A stretch of DNA of 60,654 bases, counting the filler, from Sphingomonadaceae bacterium (lineage in GTDB: Bacteria > Chloroflexota > UBA6077), in the NCBI GenBank assembly GCA_050261575.1. It is 4 parts of 4 records of this genome, joined end to end, with 100 filler letters (N's around TTAATTAATTAA, not from the genome) between each part and the next. Parts side by side here need not be neighbours in the genome. Positions count along the whole stretch, not along the records: positions 33,217 to 49,984 come from JBLNDL010000069.1; 3 more parts are not named here. One strand, written 5' to 3'. Below the pieces are notes generated by a model. That model was not told the DNA's origin and searched no databases. It saw only the letters and a list, made by a program, of their open reading frames with translations. Below, in pieces: positions 3,987 through 50,084 of the stretch; the stretch's first letter is position 1, and every line of letters begins with the position of its first letter. A program made the translations under genes and the position numbers.

Positions 3987-4187
3987 GTGGGCTGGCATTA
4001 CCCGAACTCTCCACGCGCGTCCAATTCCGAGGCCAGCAAGAGGTATTGCAGGGTCGTGCTGGCGGAGGATGCCATCTCGAATCTGGACGATCGCGGCCGG
4101 CAGGAGATGCGCGACATGGGCATCGCGCTGATGCCCGCCGACGAGGTGGGCGCGGCTCTGGAGTCCGCGGCCGACGAACCATCGTAG
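3987..4187 (+). pseudogene. Short ORF, possibly the C-terminal remnant of an isochorismatase-like hydrolase
   Basis: KRYCRVVLAEDAI...QEMRDMGIALM resembles cysteine-hydrolase C-termini; the N-terminal part is unrecognisable. Confidence 0.3.
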
Positions 4188-16947: not shown

Positions 16948-17047
16948 NNNNNNNNNNNNNNNNNNNNNNNNNNNNNNNNNNNNNNNNNNNNTTAATTAAT
17001 TAANNNNNNNNNNNNNNNNNNNNNNNNNNNNNNNNNNNNNNNNNNNN
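16948..17047. other. Artificial contig spacer
   Basis: N44-TTAATTAATTAA-N44 (six-frame stop linker). Confidence 0.99.
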
Positions 17048-33116: not shown

Positions 33117-33216
33117 NNNNNNNNNNNNNNNNNNNNNNNNNNNNNNNNNNNNNNNNNNNNTTAATTAATTAANNNNNNNNNNNNNNNNNNNNNNNNNNNN
33201 NNNNNNNNNNNNNNNN
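33117..33216. other. Artificial contig spacer
   Basis: N44-TTAATTAATTAA-N44. Confidence 0.99.
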
Positions 33217-36156: not shown

Positions 36157-36453
36157 ATGCGAGAGCTTCACAAGGGGCAGCTCGATGCAGTAAGCTGTGC
36201 CGATGCTGGTGAAGTGCCATCTCCAGGAGACCATCGACTTCGCCCCCCGCTCTGCCCGGCCATGACCTGGCAGGAGATCCTGAACGCGGCCATGCACCTG
36301 GAGCCAGCCTCGATGAGGCTGTACACCGACCTTGCCAGGAGGGCGAACGACAGTGGCACCCAGAGGCTCTTCGAGAGCCTGCCCGCCGAGGAAGCGACCC
36401 ACAAGCTCTTCTTCGAGAGGGCCTGGGACGAGGAGATCACGATTGAGAACTAG
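36157..36453 (+). pseudogene. C-terminal half of a rubrerythrin/ferritin-like protein (probably truncated)
   Basis: MTWQEIL.AAM..E..S..LY.DLA...LF..L..EEATHK holds only one helix pair; it directly follows the 74-bp element. Confidence 0.6.
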
Positions 36454-36469
36454 GAGAGGAAAGGGATCA

Positions 36470-37129
36470 ATGTCGATCGAGGAAGTCATCAACGAGTTCA
36501 GGCAAGTCCCCAGCGGATTCGTGACCGACGCCATGACGCGTCTGGGCATCTCCGGCTGGTCGGAAGGAGTGGTCCCGGTGTCATCCAAGGCCCGGCGCTT
36601 CGCCGGCAGAGCCGTGACGATGAAATACGGTCCCAAACGAGGTACTCCTGCCAAGCTGCCTAACCAGTACGAGGTGATCCGGTCTGCCAATCCCGGGGAC
36701 GTCCTGGTCATCGCGGCCGAGGGCACCCCCTGCTGGCTGCTGGGTGAGAACGTCTGCCACACCGCGCTCTACCAGGGGCTGGCCGCCGTCGTGGTCGATG
36801 GCTGCATCCGCGACTTCGACGAGATCGCGGAGTTGGAGATGCCCGTCTTCGCGAGGGGCGCCGGAATCCGGCCGTTCTCGACCCATCTGGAGCTGATCGA
36901 CGTGAACGTGCCGGTGGAGTTCGCTGGCGCTCAGATCAGGCCCGGCGACATAGTCGTCGGTGACGGTGACGGCATCGTAGTGGTCCCGGCCGACCGAGCC
37001 GACGACGTGCTCTACCAGGTGAAGGACATCGCGGTGCTGGAGAAGGAGCAGGAGGAGGCCATCAAGCGGCAGGTTCCGCTCTCCGAGTTGAACCCCATCC
37101 TTGCCAGGAAGAAGATCCTCAAGAAGTAG
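36470..37129 (+). CDS. RraA family / HMG aldolase-like protein
   Basis: VTDAM, FAGRAVT, PGDVLVI, GE, DGCIRD, PGDIVVGDGDGIVVVP. Confidence 0.9.
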   Translation: MSIEEVINEFRQVPSGFVTDAMTRLGISGWSEGVVPVSSKARRFAGRAVTMKYGPKRGTPAKLPNQYEVIRSANPGDVLVIAAEGTPCWLLGENVCHTALYQGLAAVVVDGCIRDFDEIAELEMPVFARGAGIRPFSTHLELIDVNVPVEFAGAQIRPGDIVVGDGDGIVVVPADRADDVLYQVKDIAVLEKEQEEAIKRQVPLSELNPILARKKILKK

Positions 37130-37167: not shown

Positions 37168-37195
37168 AGAAGGGGGGGTCTCGGCCCCCCCTTCT
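37168..37195. terminator. Hairpin between convergent genes
   Basis: AGAAGGGGGGG...CCCCCCCTTCT. Confidence 0.65.
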
Positions 37196-40100
37196 CACTT
37201 GATAGTCAGCCTATCGCCCTCGCTCCGCCCCCAGACCTCTGGGAAGTACATCTCGTAGCCCCTGGCGGGCAGAGCCTGGAACTCGCCCGCGCTCGTCGCC
37301 CTGGCCAGGTAGCTGTACTCGTAGGTGCCCTTGGGGAGGTAGGTGGCGAAGAGGGCCACCCGATCGTCCCTCGGCTCGACGTGCTGGAAGTAGTCGTACT
37401 TCCACCAAGGGGGATCCTCCTTGCCCTGCCCCTTCTCGTCCACCCGGCGCCCACCCGTCTCCTCCTGGGCAACGCGGCTGGTGGTCTTCAACCGAGTATC
37501 CACAGCCTCCAGCCCGGACGGGAGCGGATCCTCCACCACGACGTAGTGGAGGTCTTGCAGCGCCACCGCAGTCAGCTTGACCTTCACCGTCTCCCCCGCT
37601 GTGACCTGGTGGACGGGGCCTGCAGCCTCGTCGCCCAACCGGTAGTACTCCCGCAGGAGGACCAGCCCCTCGGCCACGGCGGGCACCTGCTCGCCGGGCA
37701 AGAAGTAGCGTAGGTGCATCGTGTAGTACAGCTTCCCTTCACCGCTCTGGCCCGGGGAGGGTTTGGCGCGGTCCAGCTTCACCCGATTGTCCCCGCCCAG
37801 CAGATCCCTCACCGCTATCACCAGTTGTCGGGCCTCGTCCACGTTCTCCCAAGTGACCGACTCGGTCGCGAGCTCGCCGCCGTTCAGGCTCACCCTGTAG
37901 GCGAAGTCACCCTTCAACTCTCCGCTGGCCTTCAGGTACTCGGTCAGTGCAATGAGGCTTGCCGCTGTCTCCTGTGTCGTCTCCCAGTGGCCCTCCTTGC
38001 GGGCCACCATCAGCCACCGCACTGCCGAGGCGATCATGGGGTGGCCGGGATCCGTGCGCACCAGGGCATTCAGCACTATGGCGGTGCTTCGAGTGTCGGT
38101 GTTCATCGTCCGCGAATCCCGCTCGGCCTCCTCCCAGTGGGTGCCGGTAGCGCTGCTGATCGCCGAGCTAGTGAGGTCCGAGATCAGGTTCTGCACCTTG
38201 CCGTCCTGATCACCCGACTGAAGCTCCCGCAGCGCCAGCAATAGGTAGGCATTCCCGTAGTTCCCGAGGGTGGACCGGCGGTCGTACAGGGCGTTGGTCA
38301 GTCCCAGGTCTCCCTTACCCGCCAGGGCGAGGGTGTACAGCACGTAGGCCCGGGCGTTCGGGTTCTCCGGGTGCTCCGCGTCCCAAGCCCTGTCCAGGGA
38401 ACGGCGCAGGAACTGCGTGGCTCTGTCCATCACCCCCCGGTCGACGGTGTGGCCCGAACGGCTGGCCTCGGCCAGCCCATGGACGACGTAGGCGGTGATC
38501 CACTGATCGCTGCCGTCGCCCGGCCACCAGCCCCAGCCGCCATCGGGCCGCTGCGCGCTGTACAGTCGCTGCAGGCTCCGCCCGACGATCGATGGCAGGC
38601 GCGAGGAGATGCCCTCCTTGTCCGGCAGTCCGAGCTCGTCGAACGCTCGCTGCATCACCACCCTCGGAAGGAAGCGGCTCACCGTCTGCTCCGTGCACTC
38701 GTAAGGGAACTCCTCCAGATAGCGGGCCGAGTAGCGCATGCCGGCAGCCAGCGAAGGCGATGTCTCCACGGTCAACTCGCCCAGTTCCGGGTTGACCCCA
38801 TCCGGCAGTCTGACCAACTCGGTGGTGGAGTCTCGCACCTCTCCGGAGGTGGCCACCACCTCCGCCGTGGTCAGGGTATGCACCGGCAGCGTGATCTCGA
38901 CAGCATCCGACGGCACCCCCTCGGTAAGGGGCCTTGCCGCCAGGGAGAGCACGGCGGAGGCGCTGCCCCCGGCCACACTCTCCACCACTCCCGGCCACTC
39001 CACCCGCTGGAGGCCCCGGGCCGCCACCTTCAACCTCTGCGGCAGGAACTCCGTGCCCTCCGTCGGGCGCACTCCCTTGGCCGAAAGGGCGACCTCCACC
39101 TCCACCTCCCGGTCACCGTAGTTGTGCAGGAGGGCGGCCAGCCGTACGCGGTCACCCATCAGCAGGAAGCGAGGGAAGGCGGGACGCAACAGCAGGCTCT
39201 TGGTGGTCACCGTGTCCACGGTGGCGCTGCCCACCAGCGTCTCGGCGGTCACGCCTTTGGCCGTTGCCCGCCAGGTTGTCAGGTTGTCGGGTAAGGGCAG
39301 GGTGACCTTCGCCTCTCCCTTATCGTCCGTACGCAGGACGGGGTTCCAGTAGGCGGTGTCCGGGAACTGGCGACGGACCGACGGGTCCTCGCCACCACCG
39401 CCCGCCCCCTTGTTCTCCCTGGGCAGATTCTCGTTGTACCGATCGACCGATTGGGTCAAGGTCGAAGCGGTGCTGACCCCCAGATTGCGGCGCCCCCAGA
39501 AGCTGTCCATCAGCTTTGGGGAGTTGTCGTCGGCAAGCGCAAACACGGAGGCGTCCACCACCGCGAGCGACAGCTCCGCCGGTACGCCATTCCCCTTCGC
39601 GTCGGAGGTCTTCACGGTGAAGGTGGCCTCGTCCCCCGGCAGGTAGCTCGTCTTATCGGGCGTTATGTCGATCTTCAGGCTCTTGTCGGCCACTCCCACC
39701 TTCAGCTCCCCGTACCCCACCTTGAAGGCGGCTACCCCGCTCGGGCCTCCCTTGAACAGCACGGCCGAGACGTAGACGTTGGGAATGTGGGCGGCCTGGA
39801 TGGGGATCTCCAGCGTCTCGCTGTTCCCCTTCATCCGGACGAGTCGATGGCTGAGCAGCTTGCCCCGCTCGATCGTGACCAGCGCCAGCGCATCCTCCAT
39901 CGGCGCGGGGATCAGCACCCTGGCCGTATCACCCACCCCGTACTCCTTCCGATCCGGGACCAGTTCCAGCCGGTCGTTGCTCTCCATGCGCCAGCTTGCA
40001 TAGCCGCTGCCCGACACGTATACGTAGGCGGCGGAGCGCGTCCGGTTGCCCTTGGGGTCCGCCACCTCGGCCACAACCCGCACTGAACCAGGGTCCCGGG

Positions 40101-43100
40101 GCGTCACGGAGGCCCTCGCCTTGCCATCGGCATCGGTGGTGACGTTGGCTGTCGCGAGGAGCGTGTCCTCCGGCTTGCTGGTCCACAGGTAGCCGCCGTC
40201 GGGCTGCCTCTCCTTCACGCTCAGCCATTTCCGGCTGTAGAAGGAGACCGAGACGGGAACGCCCGGCATCGGCCTCTTCTCGGTGTCCACCACCAGCAGA
40301 TCCACACCTGCGCTCTCCCCCACCTTCGACACGTAGCTGTCGGGCCGCAGCCCCACGTAGCGTTCTCCCTTGTGCACCACGGTCTCGACGGTGGCGCTCA
40401 CCTCCTGGTTGGTGGCATCGGTGATCGTGGCCTCCAGGGTGAAGTACTGGCTCACGAGATCCTTGCTCAGGTCGGCCGGGAACTGGATCGCGAAGCCGCC
40501 CTGTGCGTCTGTGGTCCCCTCACCCTGGGTTCGCACCCGCCCGCCCTGCATCCGGGCCTCTCTCACTAGGTCGTAGTCGACCCACTGGTAGCCCTCGACG
40601 CCGGAGAAGAGGTAGTTGCTGGAGGTCACTCGCCACTGGATCGGGCTGTTGGCCAGCGGCTGGCCGAAGTAGTACGAGGCGCTGCCCGCGGCCGAGACCT
40701 GCTCGCCGGGCAAATACGACTCCTTGGACGGGGTAACCTTGACCTCGAACTCTGGCTTCCGGTACTCGGCCACGGTGAAACCGGTGCCGAAGCTCCATTC
40801 TCCAAGGCGGGCGTTTACGTAGTAGTGGCCCAGGGCGGCCTCTGGCGCCAGGGATAGCTCGCCATCGAAGGTTCCCATGTCGCTCAGCTTCACCCGATCG
40901 GAATGCACCTGCCGGCCCCGGCTGTCCCTGACATCCAGCGATAGCTCAGTGCCAACCGGAGGAATGGAGTAGCGGGCATCATCGTCGGAGCGGACTATCC
41001 CCTTGAAGTGCACCTTCTGCCCTGGCCGATAGATTGGCCTGTCGGTATAGAGGGCGCCACGGTAGGGCTGCGCGAACGGATCCCAGGGCACGCTGAACTC
41101 GTAGGGACGGATGCCGCTCGCCCACTCGCTGCCGACCGCCCCCAGGTCGCCTTCCCCTTCGGAGAAGGCGAAGAGTTGTGGTATCGGCGCCCGCCCTGGC
41201 GCCTCCACCGGCAGCCCCGTGGCGAGCAGCAAGCCGTCCTCGTCGGTCTGCCCGGTCACTAGCGTCTTGCCGTCCGACGACACGATCCGAATGGGCAGGT
41301 CGGGCACCACGTTCCCGCTGGTCAGGTCGGTGGCCCAAACGAGGGCCTGTCCCTGTGCCCTCTTCATCGTCAAGGCCAACCTACTCACCATCAGCAGCCT
41401 CTCGTCTCTGAGCCCCTCGGGAGTGTCCACCCTGAGGTAGTAGAAGCCGGATGGCAGCTTGGAGCCGGGTTGGCCAGCGAGGTGGGTGGAGGTGAGAACC
41501 ACTTGGTCGCGTCCAGCGCCGGATGCGTCTTCCGACCAGCGTCGCACCAGCTTATTCTCGTCTGCGGCGAACGCGACCTTGCCGCGCGTGTCGTCCGAGT
41601 AGCGCAGGAACTCCTCCTGGTCGAGTCGATACAGGGACAGTTCGAGCCGGGAGATGTTGACGTGCTCAAGGTAGATCACCGGCGAAGCGGTGGCATTGAA
41701 CGTCCCCACTCTGCCGGGGATCGCAGCGTTCAGCCTCGGCGGCAAGGACCCCGTGGTGAAGGTCATCCTGAAGGGCTGGAGCTTCTGGCCGGAGCGGTCC
41801 ACGGCACCCTCGGCCACGGTAAGGGTGTACCGTGTGGACGGCCTCAGCCCGCCTCCCCAGAGGTAGAGCCTGGTATCGGAGTCCTGCCATCCGAAGTGAA
41901 GTTGAGATGGCTTGGGATCCAGGGTGAGGTGTTTCTCCACCGACTCCGGGTCCATGGGAGTGGCGAACTGCAGTTGAATCGCATCGTAGGGTGGGTGCTT
42001 CGACGCGCCGGCGGCCGGTACGGTGGAGGCCACTCTCGGCAGCCCCATAGTGGTAAAGCTCCAGCCGAACTCCTTGGTCTCGCCGCCGCCACGAGCCGCC
42101 TTCACCCCGGCGCCCACCGTCGCGGCGTAGCTCGTCTCCCTGAGGAGAGGGTCCCGAGGCTGGAAGACCAGGACCTCCCCATCCCAGGTGAGGCTACCCG
42201 CTACGGCCACGCCGTCCGGCCCCTTCAGCGAGAAGCGCTGCTCGGCAGAGGCATGAACCACCGGCTGGTCGAAAGCCACCCGAATCTCGGGGCGAAGGCC
42301 AACGTAGCGAGTGCCGACGTCCGGGGTCACCTTGCTCACGGATGGCGCCTTCGTGGTGAAGCTCCACTGGAAGTCCTCCGCCAGGGCGCTTCCGGCGGTG
42401 TCGGTGAGACCCTTGGGCACGGTGACGGTGAACCGCACCCCGGCAGGAAGGCCTCCCTCAGGCTGGAACATGTATAGTGACGTGGTGACCCAACGCCCCT
42501 TGCCGTTCAGGGCAGGCTCGATCCTGAGCGGGTTCGGCTCGCCGCCTGTGGTGCCCAGCGGTACGATCGGATAGCTGAACTGGACGACGATGATGCTTGC
42601 GGCTGCCACATCGGTGGCGCCGTCGGCCGGCTGGACGGTGAGCACCGATAGCTCCTTCGCCGTCATGAACTCGTAGGTGACGGGCTCCCTCAGCGGGAGC
42701 AGGAAGAGGCTCCGCGCCGACTGGTCCAGGCTAACGGTGTAGCGCGTCCCGCGGTCCCAGCCCGAGCGTGGAGTGAAGAGGAGGGTGTTCCCCTTCCACG
42801 AGACCGATCCGTCCACGGCGGGGCTGATCCGCAGAGCGCGTTCGGCCAGGGGCGCCAGCATCGGCCGGTCGAAGGTGATGGCGACGGGAGCGTCGGCGGG
42901 GACGTCCTTCTCGGCAGTCGGCCCGAAGTGGGCTACGGCGGGAGGCTCCAGGCCACCGGTCGCGACCCCGATGGACAGGATCAGGCCAGCCACCACCAGC
43001 AGCAGGGCGGCCGCGAGCGATAGGATCCGGCGAACCGGACGGCCGAAGAGCGGAGCGATGGGGCGACGGTGGGTCCTGGCGGCTTCGGCGTCGGGCTCGT

Positions 43101-43317
43101 GGCGGGGCGTCTCCGCCGCAAGCCGCTCCAGGCGGCGGCACAGCTCGGCGGCAAAGGCCGGCTCCGGCTCGGGCGGCGCCAGTCGACTCTGGATCCGCTG
43201 AGCTGTCTCCGCTAGCTCCGGGTCCAGACCCTCGGGCGGAGCAGCCTCCGTATCTTCGGCCACCGCCAACCAATAGGCTTCCAACAGTTGAGCCTGCTGC
43301 TGCTCCCGCTCAGCCAT
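37195..43317 (-). CDS. Alpha-2-macroglobulin with N-terminal cytoplasmic anti-sigma-like segment, one TM helix and four Ig-like (Big_5-type) repeats
   Basis: YTDRPIYRPGQ, EYRKPEF, R..FPDTAYWNP, LPDNLTTWR, thioester motif PYECTEQ (CTEQ at 38686-38697), Q.PDGGWGWW, DPLPSGLE, EMYFPEVWGRS. Confidence 0.93.
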   Translation of the reverse strand: MAEREQQQAQLLEAYWLAVAEDTEAAPPEGLDPELAETAQRIQSRLAPPEPEPAFAAELCRRLERLAAETPRHEPDAEAARTHRRPIAPLFGRPVRRILSLAAALLLVVAGLILSIGVATGGLEPPAVAHFGPTAEKDVPADAPVAITFDRPMLAPLAERALRISPAVDGSVSWKGNTLLFTPRSGWDRGTRYTVSLDQSARSLFLLPLREPVTYEFMTAKELSVLTVQPADGATDVAAASIIVVQFSYPIVPLGTTGGEPNPLRIEPALNGKGRWVTTSLYMFQPEGGLPAGVRFTVTVPKGLTDTAGSALAEDFQWSFTTKAPSVSKVTPDVGTRYVGLRPEIRVAFDQPVVHASAEQRFSLKGPDGVAVAGSLTWDGEVLVFQPRDPLLRETSYAATVGAGVKAARGGGETKEFGWSFTTMGLPRVASTVPAAGASKHPPYDAIQLQFATPMDPESVEKHLTLDPKPSQLHFGWQDSDTRLYLWGGGLRPSTRYTLTVAEGAVDRSGQKLQPFRMTFTTGSLPPRLNAAIPGRVGTFNATASPVIYLEHVNISRLELSLYRLDQEEFLRYSDDTRGKVAFAADENKLVRRWSEDASGAGRDQVVLTSTHLAGQPGSKLPSGFYYLRVDTPEGLRDERLLMVSRLALTMKRAQGQALVWATDLTSGNVVPDLPIRIVSSDGKTLVTGQTDEDGLLLATGLPVEAPGRAPIPQLFAFSEGEGDLGAVGSEWASGIRPYEFSVPWDPFAQPYRGALYTDRPIYRPGQKVHFKGIVRSDDDARYSIPPVGTELSLDVRDSRGRQVHSDRVKLSDMGTFDGELSLAPEAALGHYYVNARLGEWSFGTGFTVAEYRKPEFEVKVTPSKESYLPGEQVSAAGSASYYFGQPLANSPIQWRVTSSNYLFSGVEGYQWVDYDLVREARMQGGRVRTQGEGTTDAQGGFAIQFPADLSKDLVSQYFTLEATITDATNQEVSATVETVVHKGERYVGLRPDSYVSKVGESAGVDLLVVDTEKRPMPGVPVSVSFYSRKWLSVKERQPDGGYLWTSKPEDTLLATANVTTDADGKARASVTPRDPGSVRVVAEVADPKGNRTRSAAYVYVSGSGYASWRMESNDRLELVPDRKEYGVGDTARVLIPAPMEDALALVTIERGKLLSHRLVRMKGNSETLEIPIQAAHIPNVYVSAVLFKGGPSGVAAFKVGYGELKVGVADKSLKIDITPDKTSYLPGDEATFTVKTSDAKGNGVPAELSLAVVDASVFALADDNSPKLMDSFWGRRNLGVSTASTLTQSVDRYNENLPRENKGAGGGGEDPSVRRQFPDTAYWNPVLRTDDKGEAKVTLPLPDNLTTWRATAKGVTAETLVGSATVDTVTTKSLLLRPAFPRFLLMGDRVRLAALLHNYGDREVEVEVALSAKGVRPTEGTEFLPQRLKVAARGLQRVEWPGVVESVAGGSASAVLSLAARPLTEGVPSDAVEITLPVHTLTTAEVVATSGEVRDSTTELVRLPDGVNPELGELTVETSPSLAAGMRYSARYLEEFPYECTEQTVSRFLPRVVMQRAFDELGLPDKEGISSRLPSIVGRSLQRLYSAQRPDGGWGWWPGDGSDQWITAYVVHGLAEASRSGHTVDRGVMDRATQFLRRSLDRAWDAEHPENPNARAYVLYTLALAGKGDLGLTNALYDRRSTLGNYGNAYLLLALRELQSGDQDGKVQNLISDLTSSAISSATGTHWEEAERDSRTMNTDTRSTAIVLNALVRTDPGHPMIASAVRWLMVARKEGHWETTQETAASLIALTEYLKASGELKGDFAYRVSLNGGELATESVTWENVDEARQLVIAVRDLLGGDNRVKLDRAKPSPGQSGEGKLYYTMHLRYFLPGEQVPAVAEGLVLLREYYRLGDEAAGPVHQVTAGETVKVKLTAVALQDLHYVVVEDPLPSGLEAVDTRLKTTSRVAQEETGGRRVDEKGQGKEDPPWWKYDYFQHVEPRDDRVALFATYLPKGTYEYSYLARATSAGEFQALPARGYEMYFPEVWGRSEGDRLTIK

Positions 43318-43927
43318 CGCGCCCCTCCCCGAGGCCCCGCCCTGGATCGTTGAGGAGCGTTCGCAGTCGAGATACCGCCCTATAGCGAAGCATCTTCACC
43401 GCATCCACGCTCTTTCCCATGGCCGCCGCGGCCCGTTCTCCGGACCAGCCAGCAAGCTGAAGCTCCACGGCCACCCGCTGCTCCTCCGGGAGTATGTTCA
43501 AGGCCGCCCGAAGCGCCTCGACCTCGTTTCGCGCCAGCACGACCTCCTCCGGTGTCGATGAGGGATCGGCGGGATCGCCTATGTCCTCGATGGGCTCCGT
43601 CGGACGGTGTCGGCGCCGGGCGTCGGCGATCGTGTTGTGGGCGATGCGGAAGAGCCATGCGGCAAAGATGCCGCCCTGGTAACCACGGAGCCCGGCCAGG
43701 GCCTTCAGGAACACCTCGCTGGTGGCGTCCTCGGCTGCGTCGCGGTTCCCCATCCGAAGGTAGCAGTAGCGGTAGACGGGTCCGAGATACCGCTCGTACA
43801 GGGCAGTGAACGCCTGCGGATCGGCTTGCGCCGCCACGACCAGGGCAGCATCCTCCGCGTGGGCCTTCACGAGCGGCTCGCAGGCCACCGACCCACTGCC
43901 GGTCTGGGAACAGGATCCAAACAACAC
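43310..43927 (-). CDS. ECF RNA polymerase sigma factor (start uncertain)
   Basis: AF..LYERY...VYRY, AEDATSEVF, F.AWLFRIAHN, region 4 L..LPEEQR..G.S..AVKML.YRA; overlaps the A2M start by 8 nt. Confidence 0.92.
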   Translation of the reverse strand: MLFGSCSQTGSGSVACEPLVKAHAEDAALVVAAQADPQAFTALYERYLGPVYRYCYLRMGNRDAAEDATSEVFLKALAGLRGYQGGIFAAWLFRIAHNTIADARRRHRPTEPIEDIGDPADPSSTPEEVVLARNEVEALRAALNILPEEQRVAVELQLAGWSGERAAAAMGKSVDAVKMLRYRAVSRLRTLLNDPGRGLGEGRDG

Positions 43928-43968
43928 CCTTCTCCCGTGGGCCTCACAGAGATCTCTTCATCAAGAAA

Positions 43969-43994
43969 GACGTGCCATCCGGGGAACGGTAACG
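43969..43994 (-). promoter_or_regulatory. Putative autoregulatory ECF promoter
   Basis: CGTTAC-N16-CGTC between pbpC and the sigma gene. Confidence 0.55.
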
Positions 43995-44033
43995 GTGGAT
44001 TCACACCCATCGAGGAGGCTCACCCAGTTCCGA

Positions 44034-46502
44034 TCAAGGCATTGGTAGTGGTTCCCCCTCCACCACGATGGACACCTCGTCCCAGGCGAGGGTCTCGCCG
44101 CCAGGGGACAGCACCTCCGCCCTGAAGAGGTGCCGGCCGGGGCTCAGCGGCCAGGTGGTCCGGAAGGGGGGTTCGTCGAACCTCGCGAGAGGCTGCCCGT
44201 CCACCAGCAGATCCACACGCACGCCGCTCCCCAACCCCGCGCCCGCCGCCGCCACCTCCACCCGCTGCAGCCCCAGGGGAAGGTCCGGGCTGATCTGCAA
44301 CACCGCCCCATGGGAAGGGCTGCTGAACTGCAGTCTGGGTCGACCTCCAGACTCCGGAGCGACCGGCCCGTGAACGGGACATCCATCAGCGGGCGGCTCG
44401 GGGATGCCCCGCTCCCGCGCCCACATCTGCAGTTCGGGCGGGACGAACTGGAATACCCGCTCCTCCACCAGCTCCGGGGGACAACCGGGGGCCGCGAGGA
44501 ACCCAGTGGAACGATCGATCCGCAGGGATCGGTGCCACGAGCAGGTGGCGGTCGGCTCGGTGCCCTCCACGAACAGCTCGATCCTGCGATTTGGGCACCA
44601 CCGGGAGGGAAGCTCTCCCGTCTCCGGACACACCTCCCGGCGCACCAGGCCGGGAGGCTCGGAAAACTCCGCCACGGGGCGGTCCTTGAGCGACTCCTCC
44701 ATGAAGTCGTGCCAGATCGGAGCGGCCCCGCTGATCCCCGACACCCCCCGCATGGGACTGTTGTCGGCGTTTCCCACCCACACGGCGGCCAGCAGATCCG
44801 GCGCGTAGCCCACCGTCCAGTTGTCTCGCCAGTCGGTGGTGGTGCCGGTCTTGGCCGCGGCAGGACGGCTCAGTCGCAGCGGACTGTCCGAGCCGAAGGC
44901 CATGGAACGCGCGGCGTCGTCGGACAGGATGCTCGTAACCAGATACGCCACCTCCGGGGAGACTACCCGCCGCCCCGGGGAAGGCTCCGCCTGCCACAGG
45001 ACTCGACCCTCTCCGTCCTCCACCCTCAGGATCGCCACCGGATCACGGGCCACCCCCCCTGCGGCCAGGGCGGCGTAGGCCGACGCCAGGTCCAGGAGTC
45101 GGACCTCCCCACTGCCGAGGGCGAGGCTCAGGTCTCCACTGCTCCTGGAGGCCAGGGTAACGAGGCCGGCCCGCTGGGCCACGTCCAGAAACGCCCCCAC
45201 GCCCACCCTCTGCATCAGCGACACCGTCGGCAGGTTCAAGGAGTTGGCCAGCGACTCCCGTACCGACACCGGGCCGCGCCAGGCGCGATCGTAGTTCTCC
45301 GGCGCGTAGCTCCTGCCGTCAGCGGTGAGGAACGACGTGGGGACGTCGTACAGGACGGTGGCCGCGGTGGCAGCACGGCTCTCCAGGGCGGCGGCGTAGA
45401 GGATCGGCTTGATGGAGGACCCCGGTTGCCGGGCGGCCAGGGTCACGTTCACCTCGCCGTCGATGGCGTGATCGAAGTAGTCGGCGCTCCCCACCATGGC
45501 CAGGATCTCGCCCGTGGCCGGATCGAGCGCAACGAGGGCGCCGTTGCGCACGTTCTGGTCCGCCAGCGCCGCGACGTGGCGAGCCACCGTGGCCTCGCCG
45601 ATCTCCTGGAGTCCAAGGTCCAGGGTGGTGTACACCCGCAGCCCGCCGGCCCTCGCGGGATCCAGACCGAGCCTCCCTTCCAGCAGCTCGCGCACGAAGG
45701 CGACGAAGTGGGGTGCACGCACGGGGAAGGCCGCCGTGGACAGGCGGAGAGGCTCCACGGCGGCAGCCTCCGCCTCGCGCTCCCCGATGTACCCCTGCTT
45801 GACCATGAGTGAGAGCACGACCCGCTGGCGGGCCTTCGCCCGGGAGAGATCGGCGAGTGGGTCGTAGGCGGAGGGAGCCTGAGGCAGACCGGCCAGCAGG
45901 GCGCTCTCGGCCAGATCCAGGTCTCGGGCGCCCTTCCCGAAGTAGATCCCGGCGGCTGCCTCGATGCCCACGGCCTGGTGACCGTAGGGTGCGCTGTTCA
46001 GGTACAGCTCAAGGATCTCGTCCTTGCTCAACCGTGCCGCCAGCCGGAGGGCCAGGGCCGCCTCCCGAAGCTTCCTCCACAGGGTCTGCTCCCCCCGCTC
46101 CGACGGGCTCATCCAGAGGTTGCGCGCGAGCTGCTGGGTGAGAGTGCTCCCCCCGCTCACGATCCCATTACCGCTCAGGTTCTGCCATAGGGCGCGAAGG
46201 ATGGCCAACGGATCGATGCCGGGGTTGACGTAGAAGGAGGCATCCTCGGTGGCAATGGTTGCCTTTGCCAGGTGAGGAGGCAGTTCTCGGAGGGGGACGA
46301 AGCTCCCTTTCCCCTGCTGGGGATCGACGGCTTCGTAGAGCAGGGTGCCGTGACGATCGTAGAAGGCGGCGGTGGGCGGTAGCGATGCCCGAGGAGGCTG
46401 CTCGCGGGGATCAGGAGCGATGAACCACGCCAGGACGAGGAAAACGACCCCCAGCAGGCAGCCCAGTATGCCCGCCCGCCAACCCAATCGGGGCAGTGAC
46501 AT
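44034..46502 (-). CDS. pbpC: Penicillin-binding protein 1C-like (transglycosylase + transpeptidase + C-terminal domain)
   Basis: EDASF, GGSTLTQQLARN, RKLREA, SSIK (SxxK), SLN, KTGT; located next to A2M. Confidence 0.88.
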   Translation of the reverse strand: MSLPRLGWRAGILGCLLGVVFLVLAWFIAPDPREQPPRASLPPTAAFYDRHGTLLYEAVDPQQGKGSFVPLRELPPHLAKATIATEDASFYVNPGIDPLAILRALWQNLSGNGIVSGGSTLTQQLARNLWMSPSERGEQTLWRKLREAALALRLAARLSKDEILELYLNSAPYGHQAVGIEAAAGIYFGKGARDLDLAESALLAGLPQAPSAYDPLADLSRAKARQRVVLSLMVKQGYIGEREAEAAAVEPLRLSTAAFPVRAPHFVAFVRELLEGRLGLDPARAGGLRVYTTLDLGLQEIGEATVARHVAALADQNVRNGALVALDPATGEILAMVGSADYFDHAIDGEVNVTLAARQPGSSIKPILYAAALESRAATAATVLYDVPTSFLTADGRSYAPENYDRAWRGPVSVRESLANSLNLPTVSLMQRVGVGAFLDVAQRAGLVTLASRSSGDLSLALGSGEVRLLDLASAYAALAAGGVARDPVAILRVEDGEGRVLWQAEPSPGRRVVSPEVAYLVTSILSDDAARSMAFGSDSPLRLSRPAAAKTGTTTDWRDNWTVGYAPDLLAAVWVGNADNSPMRGVSGISGAAPIWHDFMEESLKDRPVAEFSEPPGLVRREVCPETGELPSRWCPNRRIELFVEGTEPTATCSWHRSLRIDRSTGFLAAPGCPPELVEERVFQFVPPELQMWARERGIPEPPADGCPVHGPVAPESGGRPRLQFSSPSHGAVLQISPDLPLGLQRVEVAAAGAGLGSGVRVDLLVDGQPLARFDEPPFRTTWPLSPGRHLFRAEVLSPGGETLAWDEVSIVVEGEPLPMP

Positions 46503-46505
46503 CCT

Positions 46506-46928
46506 CTACCTCTGCCCGACGCCGGCTGCCGAACACACCTTCTCGCATAGCTCGTCCACGTCGAAGGGCTTAGAGACGACGGCCTTCACCTGGCGGCACT
46601 CCCGTACCTGACGGTCGGACACGTAGGCAGACACCAGCACGACCGGCAGGCCTGCCGTGGCCTCGTCGTCCCTTAGCCGGCTCAGCACCTCGAAGCCGTC
46701 CATGTCCGGCATGTGGAGATCGAGCGTCAACACGGAGGGGCGCAGCTCCCTGGCCGCCCTCAGCCCCTCGCTACCGTCCCTGCAGCTCGCCACCTCGAAA
46801 CCGATCGACCGTAGCAGTTCGCACAGCATCTCCCTGACGGAGTCATCGTCCTCGACCACCACAGCGAGACGCGCATCCCCTTTCGAAGGCACACTCACAT
46901 CTACTCTCCACGTACCGGCAAGAGCCAA
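46506..46928 (-). CDS. Single-domain response regulator (start uncertain)
   Basis: VEDDDSVR, LDLHMPDMDG, SA, KPF. Confidence 0.9.
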   Translation of the reverse strand: MALAGTWRVDVSVPSKGDARLAVVVEDDDSVREMLCELLRSIGFEVASCRDGSEGLRAARELRPSVLTLDLHMPDMDGFEVLSRLRDDEATAGLPVVLVSAYVSDRQVRECRQVKAVVSKPFDVDELCEKVCSAAGVGQR

Positions 46929-47030: not shown

Positions 47031-47058
47031 ATTGTAAACTACCCGCGACTAGTGTCAA
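47031..47058 (-). promoter_or_regulatory. Near-consensus sigma70 promoter for response regulator-pbpC
   Basis: TTGACA-N16-TACAAT. Confidence 0.7.
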
Positions 47059-47107: not shown

Positions 47108-48049
47108 TCAGGAGGTCGCCGACACCCCGACCTTGCGGCGGGTTCGGCGCCTGAGTGTGGTGGCGGGTTCGGGGGTTTCGACGGGCTGTGCTGGTTCGGG
47201 TAGCTCACCGTCGGAGGGCTCGGAATCGCCCTCGGCCAGCAATAGGGTGATCACGGTTCGGCCACGAATGACCCGACGTTCGGGATAGAGATGCCCGGCG
47301 TCGATCAACTCCTGGATGTGGTTGGCGAGAGTGGAGCGGACCCGGCCGGTTCCGCTGACGTCGTCGGGCAGAAGCGCCCTGACGATGCGTCGGAGGGTGA
47401 GGTAGTCGGTCGACGCAGCCAGAACACGCACGCGCTCAAGCAGGTCGTCCCCGCTTGGGAGATCGATCTCCGGCTCGGGCTCTGGCTCCGGATGCGCCAC
47501 CTGGCGCCCACGGTGCCTGGGAAGGGCCAGGTACTCGTCCGCGCAGTTCCTCAACTCGCGGTTGATGCTCTCCTGGTCCGCCGCAACCACAACCCTCTTT
47601 CCGTGCCGCTTCAGCGCGTTGGCGACGGCAATGAAGTTCCGATCACCGGACCCCAGGATGAACACCTCCACCTCGGGCGCGTACTCCAACTGGTCCCGAA
47701 GGTCCTGCGCCATGACGTCGTCCACCACCGACTTCAATCGGCCACGCTGGTTCGGCCACGCCGGACAGTGCACCAACTGGAACCCATACTGGTACAGTTG
47801 AATGGCCAGGTCGTCCATATCCTCCCGCCGGAAGTCGCCAAAGGCTCGCCGCATCAGTACCCGCCCCTGATCCGGAGCTATCTCGACCAGCCGCTCTATC
47901 GCCTCGCGAGGCAGATTGGCTACGTCGATATTCAGACTCACTATGGGCCGGCGTTCCGGCGAAGAATGCCCCTTCGACACGACTGGGAAGTGTCCTCCTA
48001 TCTCGATGGGCCTGGACGACCCTGCATCGTTAATTGCATTATAGCCCAT
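47108..48049 (-). CDS. NYN-domain (PIN-like) protein with C-terminal wHTH/LOTUS-like region; true start probably downstream of 48049
   Basis: IDVAN, KSVVD, ILGSGDRNF, L...GKRVVV, L...ADEY; a TATAAT lies inside the nominal ORF start. Confidence 0.75.
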   Translation of the reverse strand: MGYNAINDAGSSRPIEIGGHFPVVSKGHSSPERRPIVSLNIDVANLPREAIERLVEIAPDQGRVLMRRAFGDFRREDMDDLAIQLYQYGFQLVHCPAWPNQRGRLKSVVDDVMAQDLRDQLEYAPEVEVFILGSGDRNFIAVANALKRHGKRVVVAADQESINRELRNCADEYLALPRHRGRQVAHPEPEPEPEIDLPSGDDLLERVRVLAASTDYLTLRRIVRALLPDDVSGTGRVRSTLANHIQELIDAGHLYPERRVIRGRTVITLLLAEGDSEPSDGELPEPAQPVETPEPATTLRRRTRRKVGVSATS

Positions 48050-48700: not shown

Positions 48701-48721
48701 GCACCACCTTTGCATGTGGAA

Positions 48722-48795
48722 CTAAGCAGGTGTCTCCAGTCCGAATCAACCCATCTGTCGGGTAACGTGTATTCTGCCCAGAGGCACCTGCTTGG
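48722..48795. repeat. 74-bp MITE-like element, copy C
   Basis: CTAAGCAGGTGTCTC...GAGGCACCTGCTTGG. Confidence 0.75.
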
Positions 48796-48826
48796 AACGC
48801 CGAGGATTCTGGCCAAGGAGCGGAAG

Positions 48827-49705
48827 ATGCAACAGGTAGAAGAGAAGATCGTCTACTCCGTCACTCGCCAGGACTGGTTGGACAGACTGGCTCAGCAGCT
48901 CCAGCAGGGTATCAACCGGCTCTTCTTCAGCAGCGACACCGCGCACAGGGTGAAGGACTTCCTCAACGGGGTGTGGTTGGCCCACCCCCTCCACCCTGCC
49001 GTGACCGACATCCCCATCGGAGCGTGGACCACGGCTCTGGTGCTGGACGGAGTCGAATCCGCCGCCGGCAAGGGCGTGCGAGGGGCCTCCTCCACGGCCA
49101 TCGGGATCGGCATCGGTGGAGCCATCATGGCGGCGATGAGCGGCATCGCCGACTGGTCCGACACCGGGGACGAGCAGCGCAGGATCGGCTTGATACACGC
49201 GGCGAGCAACAGCACGGCCCTCGGACTGTACACCGCCTCCCTCTGGAAGAGGCTGAGCGGCAGGCCGTCGGGCGCCAGGCTGCTCTCCACCGCGGGCTGG
49301 CTGGCGATGTTCGCTGGCGCATACCTGGGTGGACAGCTCGCCTATCGCCTTGGGACTCAGGTGGACCGCAACGCCTGGACATCGCAGAAGCGGGAGTTCT
49401 ACCCGACGATGCGAGAGGCCGACCTTCCGGCAGAGAGGCCCACCCGCGCGGAGGTTCAAGGCATTCCGGTGATGCTCGTCCGCCACGACAACCAGATCTA
49501 CGCCCTCGGGGATATCTGCTCACACAGGGGTTGCTCCCTCTCTCGGGGGCACCTGATGGGGGACACGATCATCTGCGCCTGCCACGGATCCACCTATCGG
49601 CTGGAGGACGGCACCTCGGTTCACGGCCCGTCCCCATACCCCCAGCCCAGCTATCCAACGAGAGTGCGCGACGGCCAGATCGAGGTGTGCCCCGCGATCG
49701 ACTGA
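48827..49705 (+). CDS. DUF2231-like membrane domain fused to a Rieske 2Fe-2S domain
   Basis: HPLHPAVTDIPIG, G.ADW, H; CSHRGC..CACHGS; AAGGAG RBS. Confidence 0.88.
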   Translation: MQQVEEKIVYSVTRQDWLDRLAQQLQQGINRLFFSSDTAHRVKDFLNGVWLAHPLHPAVTDIPIGAWTTALVLDGVESAAGKGVRGASSTAIGIGIGGAIMAAMSGIADWSDTGDEQRRIGLIHAASNSTALGLYTASLWKRLSGRPSGARLLSTAGWLAMFAGAYLGGQLAYRLGTQVDRNAWTSQKREFYPTMREADLPAERPTRAEVQGIPVMLVRHDNQIYALGDICSHRGCSLSRGHLMGDTIICACHGSTYRLEDGTSVHGPSPYPQPSYPTRVRDGQIEVCPAID

Positions 49706-49984: not shown

Positions 49985-50084
49985 NNNNNNNNNNNNNNNN
50001 NNNNNNNNNNNNNNNNNNNNNNNNNNNNTTAATTAATTAANNNNNNNNNNNNNNNNNNNNNNNNNNNNNNNNNNNNNNNNNNNN
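49985..50084. other. Artificial contig spacer
   Basis: N44-TTAATTAATTAA-N44. Confidence 0.99.

Follow-up and report, generated by a model that had tools for sequence, protein, structure and literature searches.

The analyzed window is a stretch of 60,654 nt from the Chloroflexota genome GCA_050261575.1, composed of joined contigs. Runs of N at positions 16948-17047, 33117-33216, and 49985-50084 separate at least four contigs, of which C65 (1-16947), C66 (17048-33116), and C69 (33217-49984) were mapped. Gene neighborhoods are not readable across the N joins, and the whole finding lies inside C69. This contig carries four co-directional genes on the minus strand, which encode a response-regulator receiver domain, penicillin-binding protein 1C (gene pbpC), a sigma factor of the extracytoplasmic function (ECF) group, and an alpha-2-macroglobulin (A2M) that begins with a putative anti-sigma module. 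The genes and the parts of the A2M protein are as follows.

46506..46928, minus strand: stand-alone response-regulator receiver domain, 140 residues (PF00072, E 7e-23)
44034..46502, minus strand: pbpC, penicillin-binding protein 1C, 822 residues (TIGR02073, 525.5 bits versus a cut-off of 494.2)
43310..43927, minus strand: ECF sigma factor, about 204 residues (Sigma70_r2, Sigma70_r4_2; TIGR02937, 79.4 versus 42.9)
37195..43317, minus strand: A2M gene, 2040 residues (Pfam domains above their cut-offs)
43114..43317, minus strand: A2M residues 1-68, three-helix cytoplasmic module, a putative anti-sigma domain (AlphaFold2 model and profile)
43039..43113, minus strand: A2M residues 69-93, variable basic cytoplasmic linker (predicted local distance difference test score, pLDDT, 58-67)
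42943..43038, minus strand: A2M residues 94-125, the sole transmembrane helix (hydropathy scan)
41728..42942, minus strand: A2M residues 126-530, stalk of four Big_5 Ig-like repeats (PF13205, E 5e-56, four stretches)
37237..41388, minus strand: A2M body with bMG3, MG2, bMG6, bait-region domain, A2M, thioester domain, and bMG10 (Pfam)
39535-39969, minus strand: bait-region domain, A2M_BRD (Pfam)
38686-38697, minus strand: CTEQ thioester motif, residues 1541-1544, within the thioester domain

The original prediction, made from the sequence alone, placed these four genes on one strand with the sigma stop overlapping the A2M start; open reading frames, family scans, and the overlap ATGGCTGA, read directly in the DNA, bear this out. 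The pbpC product scores above the TIGR02073 cut-off and contains the Pfam domains Transgly, Transpeptidase, and BiPBP_C. The sigma factor is of the ECF type (group 4), being about 200 residues long with only the sigma-2 and sigma-4 regions, and has 953 homologs at E<=1e-10. Its best curated match is the BldN family TIGR02952, at a score of 112.6 that lies below the cut-off of 206.45, and the protein is not a member of this equivalog. The A2M gene shows the genomic pairing with pbpC expected for bacterial A2Ms: pbpC precedes it on the same strand and is separated from it by the sigma gene. No second candidate anti-sigma gene adjoins the sigma gene in the window.

The domain composition of the A2M is complete. 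Pfam cut-offs are exceeded by Big_5, bMG3, MG2, A2M_BRD, A2M, TED_complement, and bMG10, and by sequence E. coli YfhM/ECAM (5a42/4ziq/4rtd, E 6e-37) is the closest relative of known structure. The CTEQ form of the CxEQ thioester motif is retained in all 12 full-length close homologs checked, four fusions and eight proteins lacking the module; the partial fusion P0147 ends before this region and is outside the count. The N-terminus is of a different kind. Residues 1-93 are hydrophilic and the only true hydrophobic segment is 94-125, preceded by six lysine or arginine residues in 20 (79-98) and followed by one in 20, so that the N-terminus is predicted to be inside. The sole cysteine in the first 140 residues, C60, does not lie in a lipobox. 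In-frame ATG, GTG, or TTG codons are absent between codon 19 and codons 108/109, the latter being inside the transmembrane helix; hence a start near this helix, which would have turned it into a signal peptide, is excluded. Thus, a soluble N-terminus without signal peptide or lipobox, a single transmembrane helix, four Ig-like repeats, and an intact CTEQ motif were all correctly noted from the sequence, and topology prediction (N-in, single helix 94-125, charge bias of six to one) agrees with the arrangement proposed then. The A2M is predicted to be a type-II (N-in) membrane protein with the complete thioester A2M as its extracytoplasmic part, and by these hydropathy and charge predictions it has the topology of single-pass anti-sigma factors with a short cytoplasmic domain.

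An arrangement of this kind in a metagenomic bin could be an artefact, an anti-sigma gene fragment having become attached to an A2M gene through chimeric assembly or a wrongly called start. The genome is a bin of 103 contigs with an estimated contamination of 4.76%. Across the junction of module and transmembrane segment, the only additional coverage comes from a 13-kb contig (42400-44400, two differences), whose sample is a different one but whose study is that of the probable source. The junction of sigma stop and A2M start is bridged by contigs from two other studies (468 and 356 nt). The absence of an alternative start speaks against a mis-called gene, and the same uninterrupted fusion occurs in four further protein clusters from other assemblies, P0006, P0007, P0290, and P0147. 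Each of these clusters shows signs of a neighboring sigma; equal contig size alone is insufficient to pair a sigma with an A2M, and cluster members are needed for this purpose.

P0006: 2036 residues, three members from metagenome-assembled genomes (MAGs) at NCBI
P0007: 2046 residues
P0290: 2049 residues
P0147: 1382 residues, cut by the contig end
MHB0869769 (A2M) and sigma MHB0869768: consecutive accessions, contigs equally long
MHB1161085 (A2M) and sigma MHB1161084: consecutive accessions, contigs equally long
MHB8991278 (A2M) and sigma MHB8991277: consecutive accessions, contig sizes not directly comparable
MBI4498223 (P0147, A2M) and sigma MBI4498224: consecutive accessions, contigs equally long
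P0007 (A2M) and sigma P0134: both on a contig of 12994 nt (Logan), circumstantial
P0290 (A2M) and sigma P0014: both on a contig of 13660 nt (Logan), circumstantial

One fusion was confirmed at the DNA level, on a named public MAG contig (locus L058) that encodes P0147. Here pbpC (380-2929), the sigma gene, and the module-A2M gene follow one another in this order, and the last two overlap by ATGA at position 4001, while the A2M body is only 42% identical to that of the window. An artefact is therefore very improbable, and the pbpC-sigma-module-A2M arrangement is a real, conserved but rare fusion.

The N-terminal module is characterized both by its predicted fold and by its genomic context. In an AlphaFold2 model built from 36 aligned sequences, helices span residues 2-21, 33-46, and 53-69 with pLDDT above 90; a low-confidence linker follows, with a weak fourth helix at 77-82. 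Compared with the window protein, the A2M fusions, five in all, are 56-66% identical in the helical part and 15-40% in the linker. A profile of the first ~100 residues retrieved 414 cluster representatives at E<=1e-3, 42 of them at E<=1e-10, among 1.84 billion proteins, which as a lower bound gives a family of at least 414 clusters at 50% identity. The match lies nearly always at residues 1-80 of proteins that vary in length from 78 to 1726 residues, and the consensus reads Q-A-x-L-L-x-x-Y-W...L-D-P-x-L-A...P-x-P-D-P-A-F-A-x-x-L. The module is present in 36 of the 401 genomes sampled from the phylum (a tally that takes in the unpublished genomes G199 and G294), and module-bearing ECF partner proteins are found both in Chloroflexota and in other phyla. 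An ECF sigma gene lies directly upstream on the same strand in 31 of the 31 module loci examined, at distances from -13 to +142 nt; leaving out locus L055 of G199, the count is 30 of 30. Encoding right after a sigma gene, conserved as such, is a feature of membrane anti-sigma factors, and it is seen here in the ATGGCTGA overlap and in all these loci; the A2M fusions of other assemblies likewise have a neighboring sigma. Because an ECF sigma adjoins the module wherever checked, we consider it a candidate new anti-sigma domain family, as yet uncurated, and it probably sequesters the ECF sigma encoded upstream. One match, L023 from genome G023, was dropped from the family as an ordinary zinc-type RskA-like anti-sigma factor.

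Exactly one transmembrane segment is predicted in 104 of the 114 listed family members of at least 180 residues, with a median start at about residue 97. The ectodomains that follow are diverse. In a separate set of 114 members, chosen by size, Pfam scanning yielded LolA_like (16), MucB_RseB (10), DUF4367 (7), DUF4179 (4), propellers, PDZ, and other domains, and both DUFs are associated with anti-sigma factors. Several partners (P0165, P0163, P0207, P0262, and P0278) of 1000-1400 residues bear beta-propellers of the NHL/SBBP, PD40, or Kelch type; the module has therefore been joined repeatedly to big extracytoplasmic binding domains. The genome under study has a second pair of ECF sigma and module on contig C72 (23121-26450, locus L002). 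Its sigma is 53% identical to that of the window, and its partner of 876 residues has one transmembrane helix and an ectodomain resembling those of the LolA/MucB_RseB-type family members. An ortholog-like pair is observed in the related genome G001 (L019/L027), with a sigma 66% identical to the window's.

Among A2Ms, the distribution of the module is patchy. Genomes of four other species of the same family encode orthologous A2Ms, 57-71% identical over residues 92-640, that start with a short N-terminus and either a transmembrane helix or a lipobox-like LLGC/LMGC. Homology of these relatives to the window A2M begins at its residues 92-99, and helix 94-125, by sequence, corresponds to the signal anchor of the module-free relatives. 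In the three of them with upstream DNA (G001, G002, and G003), the A2M gene directly follows pbpC with no sigma between; in G001, the order is NYN-domain gene, receiver, pbpC, and A2M. A search of 38 other genomes of the order, these four species and 34 others, found no module on an A2M. The linkage of sigma and A2M claimed for the window recurs in other assemblies, which speaks against the refuting case named in the original prediction, its absence from all relatives; it is lacking in the four other species of the family and was not found in the 34 other genomes of the order. The module is carried by 5 of the 121 Big_5-bearing homologs whose N-termini were read (9 of the 121 lack A2M domains in precomputed Pfam annotation, and about 10 start inside the first Ig domain). 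At 79 A2M loci from species-representative genomes, about 53 of which extend for 1.4 kb or more upstream of the match, pbpC is found upstream on the same strand in 34, and sigma together with module at L058 only. None of the A2M loci seen has the module without the sigma, or the sigma without the module. In a small group of soil Chloroflexota, the usual membrane anchor of the A2M has been swapped for a cytoplasmic module linked to an ECF sigma.

The history of this exchange was traced on two trees. In the tree of A2M bodies (a quick search with the module columns omitted), P0147 branches as the sister of a clade with full support, inside which module-bearing and module-free proteins interleave, and the starred branches force at least three changes of state. 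In the more careful sigma tree, the sigmas of P0001, P0006, P0007, and P0290 form one clade (95/88) with a branching order parallel to that of the A2M tree, and the sigma of P0147 is placed elsewhere. A single clade of all A2M-linked sigmas is not rejected (approximately unbiased test, p 0.138), and a single origin is neither shown nor rejected. We favor one old fusion followed by several losses, because insertion point and overlap are shared among these sequences and their promoter-like motifs are similar; alternatively, two independent fusions may have occurred. Under either history, the arrangement is kept over a long divergence.

Two putative promoters were found at the locus.

47031..47058, minus strand: sigma-70-like promoter TTGACA-16-TACAAT (11 of 12 consensus positions), upstream of receiver-pbpC
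43969..43995, minus strand: ECF-type promoter-like motif CCGTTAC-N16-CGTCTTTC (core CCGTTAC-N16-CGTC), between pbpC and sigma

One sigma-70-like site, a match to the consensus only, was found in the region versus 0.6 expected, and no terminator-like sites between 47300 and 36700. The ECF-type motif has counterparts at other module loci: CCGTTAC-N17-GGTCTTTC at the matching place upstream of the sigma gene in L058, and GTGAC-N16/17-CGTC upstream of the sigma genes in L002 and L027. As a regular expression it occurs in 4 of 30 sigma upstream regions versus 28 of 5000 random windows. The strict form has only two sites in the 3.72-Mb genome, both before the module-linked sigma genes from which it was built; the loose form has 45 matches, at about chance level. 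The motif suggests autoregulation of the sigma-A2M pair, and we make no claim of a wider regulon. The link to wall repair contained in the original prediction is not supported, because pbpC lies upstream of the ECF-type motif and follows the sigma-70-like promoter at 47058-47031 instead.

Further observations concern expression and the flanking genes. A 234-nt contig of a soil metatranscriptome (run X11) is identical to 43685-43917 inside the sigma gene, with no differences; because DNA carry-over is possible, it is a hint of expression, and transcription is not shown by it. Upstream of the receiver gene, 47108-48049 on the minus strand shares 80% identity and synteny with a counterpart in G001, and its product, by eye, looks like an NYN/LabA-type domain protein. 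The operon is closed by a gene convergent with the A2M gene (36332-37129, plus strand), whose product, likewise judged by eye, resembles proteins of the RraA/aldolase type. An open reading frame of 331 residues on the plus strand (48710-49705) contains hydrophobic segments and, at its C-terminus, a CSHRGC...CACHGS pattern, which to us recalls a Rieske 2Fe-2S domain.

Based on these data, the overall best explanation, to which we assign a probability of roughly 0.6, is that the A2M is the membrane anti-sigma factor of a self-contained autoregulated circuit. The module would bind and hold the ECF sigma encoded by the gene immediately upstream. The sigma, when free, would drive its own promoter between pbpC and the sigma gene, so that the sigma and A2M genes would form a self-contained autoregulated circuit atop read-through from the sigma-70-type promoter. 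The most likely trigger, though itself less probable than not, would be that proteases damage the exposed ectodomain or that it is turned over, reacted trap-protease complexes included. Loss of the ectodomain and subsequent intramembrane cleavage by a site-2 protease would free the sigma, and external protease attack or consumption of the trap would in this way induce more trap. Genes for site-2 proteases (Peptidase_M50) occur in the genome, and release by ectodomain loss and intramembrane cleavage would follow the example of other single-pass anti-sigma factors. Of the earlier proposal that the protease trap itself is the anti-sigma, the architecture is real, and the first ~70 residues of the A2M fall into a family that follows an ECF sigma at all 31 loci; the role of protease capture is a more tentative matter, considered below.

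Several observations weigh against this explanation. The promoter motif was derived post hoc from the same loci and is a lead rather than a test. The four other species of the family do without sigma and module, and an A2M can therefore function without the circuit. The module itself shows no detectable similarity to known anti-sigma domains: it has no HxxxCxxC pattern of class I anti-sigma factors and matches nothing in Pfam at E up to 10; alignment with four zinc-type domains by hhalign gave a probability of 0.2%, a weak test with a small template; its profile found nothing relevant in the PDB at E up to 10, including no RsbN chain; and Foldseek against the PDB returned one irrelevant match (E 8). 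VIA-align against 48,161 chains yielded only generic helical hairpins (such as HAMP; best Z 5.0). In the Protein Atlas all matches score below 0.9, the best at 0.82, and one cluster, 39% of whose members have zf-HC2, at 0.77; among NCBIfam models only SCO2400_fam appeared, at an E of 0.0097 far below its cut-off. Sub-threshold matches of three family members to NF052375, named 'antisigma' (E 0.002-0.03), are a lead only.

That no relative was recognized among solved or curated anti-sigma domains would be expected if the module were a mere cytoplasmic tail or anchor that binds no sigma, the sigma being regulated otherwise, and relatives indeed anchor the same A2M by a plain transmembrane helix or a lipobox. 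A mere tail does not account for the constant adjacency of an ECF sigma (31/31), the overlapping stop and start codons seen both here and at L058, the conservation of the helices next to a variable linker, or the fact that among A2M loci the module is seen only with a sigma and neither occurs alone. Hence, we regard this alternative as quite improbable, and sequestration of the sigma by the module as likely.

The nature of the signal is less certain. That protease damage or turnover of the reacted trap is the trigger is a tentative proposal, with the balance lying somewhat against it. A sensor model, in which capture of or cleavage by an attacking protease alters or destroys the ectodomain, the anchor is then cut within the membrane, and the freed sigma re-arms the trap in proportion to the attack, is plausible and at the same time doubtful. 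RseP/RasP-type site-2 proteases usually need the ectodomain to be shortened near the membrane first. Cleavage of the bait, at about residue 1200, would not itself shorten the ectodomain there and leaves a large part of it in place; extra cleavage or degradation near the membrane must therefore be assumed, which is a further point against the circuit as proposed.

Another scenario is an anti-sigma module whose signal is unrelated to protease capture: the A2M would be a feedback product that titrates the sigma, or its ectodomain would sense another envelope cue. In favor of this scenario, fusion of the module to many unrelated ectodomains (LolA-like, MucB_RseB, beta-propellers, PDZ) implies that it is a generic output device. 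Negative feedback of this kind is inherent to every co-transcribed sigma/anti-sigma pair, and the strict promoter motif has no sites in the genome beyond the two sigma operons. Against it, the fusion persists across lineages in which the A2M bodies share only 42% identity, and the thioester motif is intact in four of four full-length fusions, as it is in eight of eight close module-free homologs. A functional trap has thus been kept as the ectodomain, which fits sensing without proving it. We consider a signal unrelated to capture rather unlikely, and the autoregulated circuit with the A2M as anti-sigma factor remains our preferred explanation.

Bacterial A2Ms are regarded as guarding the envelope passively, and to our knowledge nothing is known about the control of their supply. 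The fusion of trap and module provides a concrete hypothesis, testable with reporters, that bacteria sense hostile proteases through the trap itself. Animal cells recognize reacted A2M, and protease sensing via A2M would, if true, be a bacterial parallel. It would also be the first example in bacteria of signaling to transcription by a member of the complement/A2M superfamily of thioester proteins. Beyond A2Ms, the module may represent a widespread uncurated class of anti-sigma factors, possibly related in layout to RsbN. As a mark of ECF partners it could improve the annotation of many 'hypothetical' membrane proteins, and such sigma/anti-sigma pairs could be candidate parts for orthogonal switches.

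Our literature search found no work that treats anti-sigma factors, alpha-2-macroglobulins, and ECF sigmas together. Matches joining macroglobulin with a sigma or anti-sigma factor were unrelated, as judged by title and abstract and in one case by passages. A classification study states in its available text that it set aside 132 subgroups of anti-sigma factors in which unexpected Pfam domains occurred, 'data not shown' (PMC7406223). The sigma group of the window may already be listed in such ECF classifications. The closest known A2M system is that of ECAM/YfhM, for which the accessible part of the source describes a yfhM-pbp1C operon, inner-membrane anchoring, a CxEQ thioester, and a proposed role in protease defense coupled with repair (PMC4498604). 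ECAM/YfhM (SaA2M) and the window A2M share the macroglobulin (MG) domains, the bait region, the thioester domain (TED) with CxEQ, and MG10, as well as the adjoining pbpC and the anchoring at the cytoplasmic membrane, facing outward. By sequence, the window A2M has every feature of this type except the lipoprotein or signal-peptide N-terminus, and trapping itself is predicted. It differs from ECAM/YfhM in three respects: (i) the anchor is a transmembrane helix after a cytoplasmic part of ~93 residues and not a lipid or signal peptide, (ii) four Big_5 repeats are located between the membrane and the MG ring, and (iii) an ECF sigma gene separates pbpC from the A2M gene. No regulatory role of ECAM is described in that portion of the source (PMC4498604).

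As for single-pass anti-sigma factors, the likeness to RseA, RsiW, and RsiV lies in a gene that follows and overlaps the sigma gene, a helical cytoplasmic domain with the N-terminus inside, one transmembrane segment, and a variable ectodomain. RsiV is reported to be destroyed by regulated intramembrane proteolysis upon lysozyme binding, a precedent for an anti-sigma ectodomain that directly senses an enzyme from outside (PMC6066255, from the part of the article at hand). Unlike class I anti-sigma domains, the module lacks HxxxCxxC as well as Pfam or profile similarity, and its model has three confident helices and a weak fourth at 77-82, where class I domains have three plus one. Unlike the ectodomains of RseA, RsiW, and RsiV, that of the window protein has ~1900 residues and would itself be both substrate and inhibitor of proteases.

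The layout resembles that of RsbN, the class III anti-sigma factor of BldN. As presented in the available text of the source, RsbN is a single-pass protein whose cytoplasmic N-terminus of 117 residues binds the sigma via three helices; these are conserved and lie in the first ~90 residues, the linkers are variable, and there is one transmembrane segment. The same text reports that RsbN lacks similarity to other anti-sigma factors, is always encoded beside bldN, and has homologs apparently confined to Streptomyces (PMC6101532). The window protein likewise has three helices in residues 2-69, a variable linker, and a transmembrane segment at 94-125, and the BldN family is the best curated match of its sigma. 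The BldN score is sub-threshold and the module profile found no RsbN chain, which makes this a likeness of layout only. With these neighbors, the fusion is a variant of the ECF sigma/anti-sigma theme in which a protease trap serves as the ectodomain, and it is new in that respect.

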